From NCBI GenBank assembly GCA_949291375.1, contig CASEVI010000002.1, positions 40,069 to 104,068 of the forward strand: a stretch of DNA of 64,000 bases, in the 5' to 3' direction. Positions 15,593 to 17,227 of the stretch are shown here, in pieces. This DNA is from an uncultured bacterium (lineage in GTDB: Bacteria; Bacillota_I; Bacilli_A; RFN20; CAG-826). The notes below the pieces were generated by a model. The model was not told the origin of the DNA. It worked only from the letters and a program-made list of their open reading frames with translations, and made no database searches. Every line of letters starts with the position of its first letter. The stretch's first letter is position 1. The position numbers and the translations under genes are program-made.

Positions 15593-17227
15593 TCACATTT
15601 CATAGTGATTGTCTTTACATTTTTCAAGATAAATATAAAGAGCCTTTTCCCACTCTTCTCCTTCGTAAATATATTCGTTTTTCTCTAATTTTCTTAATTG
15701 TTTAGAGTTCTTTTTTAAAAAAGAAAAATAAGAAATATCTAAATTTTTATAAAATTTTAACCCATTAAAAGAAAGCATAATTGATTTAGGGAAAAATGAT
15801 AAACTTCCAATATTTTTATAGCCTTCTTTAATTGAAACATAACGCATTAAAAACCATGAATTAATTAATTTTTGAGCAAATTTATTAATATCAAATTTTT
15901 CTAACTCAATATTTTTATATCTAAAATATAAAGTTTTATTAATAAAGACTACTTTTTTTGAATATAAAAAACTTAAATATGAAAAGAAAAGATCTTCCAT
16001 ACAAGAGCTTTCTCCCATAAAAAAGATATTTTGATTCTTTAAAAAGTCTTTTTTAAAGAATTTATTAAAAAGATAACCTCTAACAAAAATATCATTAAAT
16101 AAAGCTTTTAAGATTCTTTTTTTATTATTTTTATTATAAAAATTAGTTAAATAAAAGTGAAAATTAAATGAAGAAACTTTTTTATTTTCTTTTATATTTT
16201 TATATAAAAAATTAACTACATCAGCATTATTTTTTAAAGCAACAGTATAATTAACATTTAAAAAATCTTTAGAAACATAACTAGAAGATTCAACAAAAGA
16301 GATATATCTTCCATTCACATTTTTTAAAGCATAATTTTTAATGTTAGATATATCTAAAAATAAAGAATTAGGTAAAATATGAACATTAAATAAATCATCA
16401 TGTTTATTTCTATATTCATTAATTATATTTATATTTTCTTTATCATTATCACTTAAAATAACAAATATCTCATAAGCAATATTACCTTCTTGGTTAATTA
16501 AAGAATCTAAACACTTTCTTAAATTTTCTTCTTTTAAATTATCTTTTAATAATAAAACTAAAGATATATCAATAATTTTCTCTTCCCTTTTATTTAATGG
16601 AAGAGAAAATTCACATCCACAGTATTCTTGTCGATATAAATTATATTTTTTAGCGATTTTTATACCAATTTCTTGGCCATCATTCTTTTTAAAATCAGTA
16701 TAAATAAATTCGATTTTATTTTTATATAAGTTATTTTCTATCGCCTTACCAATTTTATTAATATAATTAACATCTTTATTTCTAGAAATCGACATTACAG
16801 TAGTTATATATTTAAAATTTCTTTCATTAGCAACTTCAAATAAACGTCTCATTCTTTTAGCAATACAAATTTTACAGCGATTTAACCCTTCTTTTTGATC
16901 TTTAAAAGGAATTAAATCATTTTTAAAAAAATCATAATCATAATTATCTTCAATAATTAAAATATGTTTATTAAATTTTAAATTTATTTCATTAACATAT
17001 CTTTTTAAATTATAAAGTCTTTTATCATATTCTTCTTTTGGATAAATATTTGAATTTGAATAAAGAATTGTAATATCAAATAAATCTTGTAAAAAAACCA
17101 GTGGATATGCACTACATGGTCCACAACAAACATGAAGAAGTAATTTTGGTTTTCCTGCTTCTTTTTTTCTAATTTCTTTATATTCTTTTACAAATTCTAA
17201 ATAATAGTTATTAATTTCTTTATCCAT
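15593..17227 (-). CDS. queH: Epoxyqueuosine reductase QueH (DUF208) fused to a C-terminal GT2-family (GT-A fold) glycosyltransferase-like domain
   Basis: N-terminal residues about 25-215 carry the QueH signatures LLLHVCCGPCS, a CKIC...TTVMSIS block, and YRQEYCGCEFS. The C-terminal residues, about 230-330, read ISLVLLLKDN..LRKCLDSLINQEGNIAYEIFVILSDNDKENINIINEY...NVHIL...YALKNVNGRYISFVESSSYV. This aligns position by position with the GT2 consensus (VSVIIP.YN..L..CL.SL.NQ...EIIVVDDGS.D....I...Y...I..I...N.G.S.ARN.G...A.GEY..F.D.DD), but the DxD is replaced by ESS. Confidence 0.75.
   Translation of the reverse strand: MDKEINNYYLEFVKEYKEIRKKEAGKPKLLLHVCCGPCSAYPLVFLQDLFDITILYSNSNIYPKEEYDKRLYNLKRYVNEINLKFNKHILIIEDNYDYDFFKNDLIPFKDQKEGLNRCKICIAKRMRRLFEVANERNFKYITTVMSISRNKDVNYINKIGKAIENNLYKNKIEFIYTDFKKNDGQEIGIKIAKKYNLYRQEYCGCEFSLPLNKREEKIIDISLVLLLKDNLKEENLRKCLDSLINQEGNIAYEIFVILSDNDKENINIINEYRNKHDDLFNVHILPNSLFLDISNIKNYALKNVNGRYISFVESSSYVSKDFLNVNYTVALKNNADVVNFLYKNIKENKKVSSFNFHFYLTNFYNKNNKKRILKALFNDIFVRGYLFNKFFKKDFLKNQNIFFMGESSCMEDLFFSYLSFLYSKKVVFINKTLYFRYKNIELEKFDINKFAQKLINSWFLMRYVSIKEGYKNIGSLSFFPKSIMLSFNGLKFYKNLDISYFSFLKKNSKQLRKLEKNEYIYEGEEWEKALYIYLEKCKDNHYEM

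Follow-up and report, generated by a model that had tools for sequence, protein, structure and literature searches.

Here we report that an open reading frame (ORF) in a 64,000-nucleotide stretch of contig CASEVI010000002.1 from an uncultured bacterium (the whole of this stretch is hereafter 'the window') encodes the epoxyqueuosine reductase QueH fused to a module of glycosyltransferase (GT) family 2 (GT2). The ORF occupies positions 15593..17227 on the minus strand and is uninterrupted (544 amino acids plus stop). The reading that we favour, and to which we assign a probability of roughly 60%, is that the protein consists of a working QueH and a catalytically dead GT-A domain that stems from an adjacent surface-glycan gene and has been kept for a non-catalytic role, most plausibly in structure or oligomerisation. 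In this scheme queH would have become joined end-to-end with the gene that formerly lay immediately downstream, a TarP/TarS-type GT2 gene of a variable surface-glycan cluster situated between the que and S10 operons in an uncultured lineage of gut Bacilli. The intact QueH would catalyse the last step of the pathway, the conversion of epoxyqueuosine (oQ) to queuosine (Q) on tRNA, following precursor import by QueT and the action of Tgt and QueA. The GT-A domain, deprived of its residues for nucleotide-sugar donor and metal binding, would probably be inactive, and the GT half, which stays full length and under purifying selection as constraint moves to its acceptor-side block and C-terminal helices, would serve as a structural or oligomerisation scaffold for QueH.

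Architecture of the fusion protein

The original prediction, made from the sequence alone, had described the ORF as QueH fused to a GT2 (GT-A) domain, and profile searches recovered both parts. The QueH domain (residues 29–209; 16601..17143, minus strand, as are all features of this gene) matches Pfam PF02677 with an E-value of 1.9e-51 (175.1 bits as compared to a gathering cutoff of 23.5; profile positions 1–173 of 175). The QueH of T. maritima (7LC5) matches the same half with an E-value of 3.6e-23, and the AlphaFold2 (AF2) model compared to 7LC5 in Foldseek yields a template modelling (TM) score of 0.87, normalised to the target, with a root-mean-square deviation of 2.8 Å. All three cysteine motifs with which the family binds its metal clusters are in place: the first cluster, HVCCGPCS (residues 32–39; 17111..17134), which aligns to HVCCAPD of 7LC5; the CxxC motif within RCKICIAKR (residues 117–125; 16853..16879), likewise aligned to 7LC5, in which R117 is invariant along with the cysteines; and the C-terminal YRQEYCGCEFS (residues 198–208; 16604..16636). 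The domain is nearly invariant over 19 aligned fused homologues, all of which carry C34, C35, C38, C118, C121, C203 and C205. The N-terminal 215 residues thus resemble QueH proteins (DUF208, PF02677) such as 7LC5 in their CCxPC, CxxC and CGC motifs, in fold and in tgt/queA context; they differ from the T. maritima enzyme in having Cys38 at the position of Asp13, and the protein as a whole differs from canonical QueH (about 180–250 amino acids) by an additional 330-residue C-terminal GT-A-like domain. As judged by family membership and the queT-tgt-queA context, the QueH half probably reduces oQ to Q on tRNA.

The two halves are joined by a linker (residues 210–220; 16568..16600) made up of the former QueH tail and the former GT N-terminus; it contains no internal methionine, and the predicted local distance difference test score (pLDDT) of the AF2 model is low at residues 213–215. 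Beyond it lies a GT-A fold core with a degenerate donor site (residues 221–440; 15908..16567), of which residues 233–378 match Pfam PF00535 (Glycos_transf_2) with an E-value of 1.5e-8 and 35.2 bits, above the gathering cutoff of 23.3. The AF2 model (mean pLDDT 82 for the whole protein, 86–94 over residues 220–340) has a GT-A fold and, after it, four long helices. For this half, a Foldseek comparison with the PDB returned GalT1 (5HEA), TarP, TarS and RmlT at a probability of 1.0, with TM-scores of 0.67–0.72 normalised to the target (0.67 for TarP); the predicted structure is hence the GT-A fold that had been proposed for this half. The motifs quoted in the original prediction are all present, the two cysteine motifs HVCCGPCS and YRQEYCGCEFS at the positions given above, and YEIFVILSDND and GRYISFVESSSYV at residues 252–262 and 306–318, respectively. 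The last of these contains the replacement of DxD by ESS that the original prediction had pointed out: E313-S314-S315-S316 (16280..16291) stands opposite TarS D91-S92-D93-D94, that is, in place of the DxDD motif for metal and nucleotide-sugar binding, the DxD of TarS being D91/D93 with D94 adjacent (PMC5156392). The ED motif is retained, with E411-D412 (15992..15997) aligning to the catalytic base E177/D178 of TarS (PMC5156392, PMC9837562). The C-terminal helical region (residues 441–544; 15596..15907) is modelled with helices at residues 447–467, 478–491, 500–513 and 525–538, and contains the motif YEGEEWEK (residues 521–528; 15644..15667), five residues of which (E522, G523, W526, E527 and K528) do not vary in any of the aligned fused proteins.

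A profile built for the GT-module family scored 141 bits against GalT1 (5HEA), 128 bits against TarS and 122 bits against TarP (positions 6–296 of 325), while NCBIfam yielded only sub-threshold matches, to PRK10073 and TuaG. By profile and predicted fold, the module is therefore best placed in the surface-glycopolymer transferase family typified by TarP (6H1J), TarS (5TZE), RmlT (8BZ4) and GalT1 (5HEA), which add sugars to wall teichoic acids or surface glycoproteins. It shares with them the GT-A fold with a helical C-terminal extension and the ED motif, and TarP can be aligned to it almost end to end. It differs in having other residues at DxDD, at the β2 Asp, at the β1 Pro and at the Arg and Gly of RNxG, in that it is fused to a tRNA-modification enzyme, and in that genes for teichoic-acid or glycan partners are lacking nearby: we found neither Tar/Tag-type genes nor partner glycan genes (GT4, membrane GT2, epimerase, DUF4422) within the 64-kb window.

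Origin of the fusion and decay of the donor site

To place the gene in its lineage, homologous loci were collected with one genome per species; the 80 loci returned all derive from metagenome-assembled genomes of uncultured gut Bacilli and from Erysipelotrichales-like relatives. Eight of the Bacilli-type que/S10 contigs (L007, L010, L012, L031, L035, L040, L059 and L070) are binned under names such as Phocaeicola dorei, Lachnospiraceae, Bacteroidaceae, Parabacteroides goldsteinii and Gemmiger formicilis, and the bins that hold them are probably mislabelled or contaminated. The common backbone of the loci is queT-tgt-queA-queH followed by the S10 operon. The GT module is fused to QueH in 13 loci (L001–L013), has its own gene right after queH in 10, and lies upstream of queH in five, as a separate gene in L018, L021 and L037 and as part of a GT2-GT4 fusion in L022 and L024; in many sister genomes, queH is present with no GT gene close by. 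In total, full-length QueH-GT fusions fall into about 22 protein clusters, with identity down to 43%. In L022 and L024 (positions 5881–7980 of these loci), the gene just upstream of queH encodes a protein of 699 amino acids that joins the GT2 module to a GT4 domain (Glycos_transf_1); the module has thus entered a fusion a second time, independently of the first.

The slot between queH and the S10 operon also holds genes for a 427-amino-acid membrane GT2, GT4 proteins, DUF4422, an NAD-dependent epimerase/dehydratase and an aminotransferase, and is thus a variable glycan gene cluster. In outgroup genomes, the nearest GT homologues, of about 40–43% identity, are encoded directly upstream of rpsJ, the first gene of the S10 operon, in the absence of que genes: one locus reads uvrB-GT2-GT2-rpsJ, and in another GT2-glf-GT2-GT2 and four genes of RmlA-D-type Pfam families adjoin rpsJ. 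This indicates that the GT belongs to an S10-anchored glycan locus, with queH a neighbour by position. In six of the 10 loci with an unfused downstream GT gene, the queH stop codon overlaps or abuts the GT start codon (–8, –1 or +2 nt), so that one small mutation would suffice for fusion. In a tree of Tgt and QueA the fused genes form one clade, and so do the upstream forms. The fusion arose once, and the GT half is derived from the adjacent gene rather than from foreign DNA.

The original prediction had taken the AT-rich GT half for a separately acquired module. While the separate origin stands, in the form of the adjacent gene, the AT-richness is slight, with a GC content of 18.2% in the GT half as compared to 20.9% in the QueH half, and at third codon positions (GC3) the order is reversed (10.9% and 7.9%, respectively). 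This pattern implies that the small difference in GC stems from amino-acid content; composition gives no sign of a foreign origin, and we reject that reading. An assembly or frameshift artefact is rejected as well: the fusion recurs in 22 protein clusters and at 13 loci that are independent of one another, and the junction lacks an internal methionine; furthermore, the identical protein (P0001) is found in NCBI, ENA and Logan assemblies, and the ORF is therefore not peculiar to the sequence studied here.

Elsewhere, QueH is fused to RNase HII (PF01351), VanZ (PF04892), APH (PF01636), a PF00953 transferase, amidase_3 (PF01520) and PF07963 (P0025–P0053). These proteins likewise combine QueH with an unrelated domain and their source names suggest small-genome uncultured lineages, with partner domains and lineages different from those described here; given such partners, a queH fusion need not signal a shared pathway. 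Among the source names are Gracilibacteria for one QueH-RNase HII fusion and Pacebacteria for one QueH-PF00953 fusion.

We then compared five motifs of the GT module across these forms. The β2 Asp, RNxG, DGDD and ED are kept in all 12 stand-alone genes and in basal fused proteins (P0009–P0014, L005 and L013), and all of these also keep the β1 Pro, save that Ala takes its place in the three upstream stand-alone forms. At the positions of β1 Pro, β2 Asp, RNxG, DGDD and ED, the window protein carries L, S, KNYA, ESSS and ED, respectively: four of the five are lost and ED alone is kept (the donor elements β1 P-x-x-N/G, the terminal Asp of β2 and RNxG read LLLKD, ILS and KNYA as compared to (P/A)IHG, xxD and RNxG in stand-alone genes). 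In line with this, PF00535 scores 79–98 bits for the stand-alone genes tested and 35 bits for the window protein. Other fused lineages display different mosaics (EPTD, GLNG, SSND, NSND, DSTS), and in some eroded lineages the ED is lost too, being replaced by NN, ST and SD in P0022, P0017 and P0020, respectively. In an outgroup-rooted neighbour-joining (NJ) tree, which has no support values, intact forms are basal and the intact P0012 is nested among eroded ones, a placement that suggests that the site decayed independently on at least two or three occasions once the fusion had formed. With the donor and metal residues lost (β1 Pro, β2 Asp, the Arg and Gly of RNxG, and DxDD), the GT-A domain of the window protein is most likely not a working Leloir glycosyltransferase.

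The GT half is nevertheless under purifying selection. The ratio of non-synonymous to synonymous substitution rates (dN/dS, ω) of the GT half is 0.17–0.33 within the clade of the window protein, 0.07–0.10 in the eroded clade of L007, L010 and L012 and 0.07 in the intact pair L005 and L013; for the QueH half, close pairs give 0.035–0.145. Apart from cuts at contig ends, we saw no truncated or frameshifted fusions, either in the 13 fused loci or in the 22 protein clusters. On the strength of the ω range of 0.07–0.33 and of the invariant C-terminal motif, we reject a decaying pseudogene tail. Within the module, constraint has left the donor subdomain for the acceptor-side block and, above all, for the C-terminal helices that carry YEGEEWEK: the mean pairwise identity of donor subdomain, acceptor side and C-terminal helices is 0.43, 0.34 and 0.22 in the intact enzymes and 0.30, 0.33 and 0.38 in the eroded fused proteins, respectively. 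At the position of YEGEEWEK the downstream stand-alone forms have only PWEx, and nothing could be aligned in two of the three upstream forms. As a separate observation, L001 and L002 differ little in the QueH half (dN 0.002, dS 0.054) and far more in the GT half (dN 0.121, dS 0.437), which could be the trace of a recombination event that broke close to the junction of the two domains.

Possible roles of the GT half

A non-catalytic role of the GT domain, which the original prediction had offered as an alternative to activity, fits both the purifying selection and the shift of constraint; the specific suggestion of tRNA binding finds no support in the charge of the module. All GT modules, fused or unfused, are basic, with an isoelectric point around 9 throughout, and give no sign of a gain of positive charge for tRNA binding in the fused forms. 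We consider a scaffold or oligomerisation role the most likely one, by analogy: the relatives TarP and TarS trimerise via C-terminal elements, and YEGEEWEK lies at the same relative position as the trimerisation segment of TarP (amino acids 306–326; PMC9837562), a correspondence of position and not of alignment. The GT half could also be a binding module, which is possible and less likely than a scaffold.

Several points weigh against this interpretation. The scaffold role is itself an analogy to TarP and TarS, and the AF2 model, with a predicted TM-score (pTM) of 0.62, gives no information on inter-domain contacts. The dN/dS values come from the simple Nei-Gojobori method (NG86) applied to an extremely AT-rich genome, and the NJ trees on which the clades and erosions are read carry no support values. 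Adjacency of the GT gene and queH is kept in three arrangements (downstream, upstream and fused), which could mean functional coupling and not just position. Finally, the window protein still has the NKFFKK block and, in ED, the catalytic base, leaving room for a non-canonical, metal-independent activity.

That last point is the core of a bifunctional reading, in which the GT domain would still be an active surface-glycopolymer or glycolipid glycosyltransferase that uses a donor site other than the canonical one (with Asp replaced by E313, and perhaps with no need for metal) and merely shares a polypeptide with QueH. Some GT-A enzymes function without a DxD, the fold is predicted to be GT-A with good confidence, the acceptor-side block persists together with the ED base, and the GT half is under purifying selection. 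However, it is four separate donor-binding elements that are altered and not the DxD alone, the donor subdomain is now the least conserved region, other eroded lineages (P0022, P0017, P0020) have lost the ED as well, and partner glycan genes are missing not only from the window but also from the immediate neighbourhood of the gene in every fused genome; we therefore regard an active transferase as quite unlikely. The converse possibility, that the GT half has no function and is a passenger in the course of being lost, retained only since truncation would harm an essential or beneficial QueH, would account for the progressive, mosaic-like erosion of catalytic motifs across lineages and for the higher ω of the GT half than of the QueH half in the clade of the window protein, and the GC content of 18.2% is what weaker amino-acid constraint might be expected to produce in an AT-biased genome. 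We consider it unlikely, as ω is far below 1 in every pair (down to 0.07–0.10 in the clade of L007, L010 and L012), truncated or frameshifted versions are absent from the fused loci and clusters, cuts at contig ends aside, and the C-terminal region, with the invariant residues of YEGEEWEK, is more conserved than in the active enzymes.

The original prediction had read the fusion to the last enzyme of Q biosynthesis as a hint that this organism may glycosylate Q, as animals do, and this inference is not supported. In such a scenario the GT, at least in relatives with an intact DGDD, would add a hexose to Q34 after QueH has acted, in the manner of animal galactosyl-Q (galQ) and mannosyl-Q (manQ). 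It can draw on the conservation of the fusion over 22 protein clusters, on GT-queH adjacency in three arrangements, often with overlapping stop and start codons, on the retained ED base, and on GT4 genes beside queH in some genomes, a superficial parallel to the animal pair QTGAL (GT2) and QTMAN (GT4). We used human QTGAL (UniProt Q67FW5, identity confirmed by exact sequence look-up), which is B3GNTL1, the animal GT2 Q-galactosyltransferase (PMC11755703), for comparison. It scored 55.9 bits against the GT-module profile, over positions 5–121 only, i.e. the generic GT2 donor-binding N-terminus, with 20% identity by BLASTP, as compared to 122–141 bits for TarP, TarS and GalT1. The likeness is thus one of the GT2 superfamily and its generic N-terminal region; past this core there is no similarity, the ESSS of the window protein corresponds to a preserved DSDD in QTGAL, and nothing points to a tRNA substrate. 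With the match confined to the generic N-terminus, the analogy with the animal enzyme holds at the superfamily level only, and we reject a specific kinship. Nor do the remaining data favour Q glycosylation: the window protein lacks the DxD and three further donor-site motifs; the donor site was eroded in at least two to three sublineages after the fusion, which would be unexpected had activity driven it; the closest relatives of the module are teichoic-acid and surface-glycan enzymes; outgroup homologues reside next to rpsJ, in glycan clusters of the rml/glf type that contain no que genes; many sister genomes that retain queH lack the GT gene; and in the literature library that was searched, no paper describes a QueH-GT fusion or bacterial glycosyl-Q. 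A Q or oQ glycosyltransferase is, in our estimation, highly improbable, though the adjacency to queH, kept in three arrangements, leaves it a small probability for the intact relatives. A variant, in which the queH-linked TarP-like GT2s with intact motifs, both stand-alone and fused with DGDD, would be bacterial Q/oQ glycosyltransferases and the window protein a derived, transfer-inactive member that still recognises Q-tRNA (or a sugar-Q product) and thereby helps QueH in binding or regulation, we also consider highly improbable.

If the captured, catalytically dead scaffold domain is the right interpretation, the gene would be a clean natural case of the birth of a pseudoenzyme domain via read-through capture of a neighbouring gene, in which the active site decays in several sublineages while selection moves to another surface of the fold. 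It would also caution against annotation by guilt of association, as two genes in a small, tightly packed genome may become fused owing to where they lie and not to a pathway that they share. Research on queuosine would lose a lead towards bacterial glycosyl-Q that was attractive but lacked support. The protein adds a new architecture to the QueH family without amounting to a new biochemical system.

The que locus and its surroundings

The tgt-queA-queH operon of the original prediction is indeed there, with queT-tgt-queA directly upstream of the fusion gene on the same strand. On the minus strand the order is queT-tgt-queA-fusion gene, followed after a gap of about 190 nt by rpsJ (15068..15400), which anchors the glycan gene cluster in related genomes. 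queA (17284–18309) matches PF02547 with an E-value of 2.3e-135 and an NCBIfam QueA equivalog above its cutoff; tgt (18315–19445) matches PF01702 with an E-value of 1.6e-159 and TIGR00430 above its cutoff; and queT (19760–20368), the queuosine-precursor transporter gene, matches PF06177 with an E-value of 9.4e-35. preQ1 riboswitches are often found upstream of queT in Firmicutes. Here, neither a preQ1 riboswitch (at E-values up to 1) nor any other Rfam RNA was detected in the 220–314-nt intergenic regions that flank queT (19446–19759 and 20369–20588). A search of the window for tRNA genes found none, and promoter and terminator scans were no more informative than those of shuffled sequence. The leader of rpsJ (15401–15500, minus strand) can form a long hairpin (GUUCGUU...AACGAA, –23.5 kcal/mol), which is not significant on its own (z = –1.4 as compared to shuffles).

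Directly upstream of queT are genes for two very large transglutaminase-core proteins, at 20589–23846 (1085 amino acids) and 23850–26030 (726 amino acids), both on the minus strand; homologues occupy the same position in L001–L004, and another lies upstream of queA in L034. What looks like a McrBC-like defence cluster comes next, at 26017–30265 (minus strand), with a DUF2357 (McrC-like) gene between two genes for AAA_5 (McrB-type) ATPases/GTPases. At 36097–39419 (plus strand), an AAA_21 ATPase and an RloB-like protein (an abortive-infection or OLD-like pair) are encoded ahead of a Fic/DOC protein. Finally, the window contains four large ORFs of 971–1199 amino acids, at 43147–46746 (plus strand), 49523–52648 (minus strand), 53911–57348 (minus strand) and 58120–61035 (plus strand); each has a weak collagen-triple-helix-like match at residues 25–55 and no further Pfam domain, and the four may constitute a family of surface proteins.

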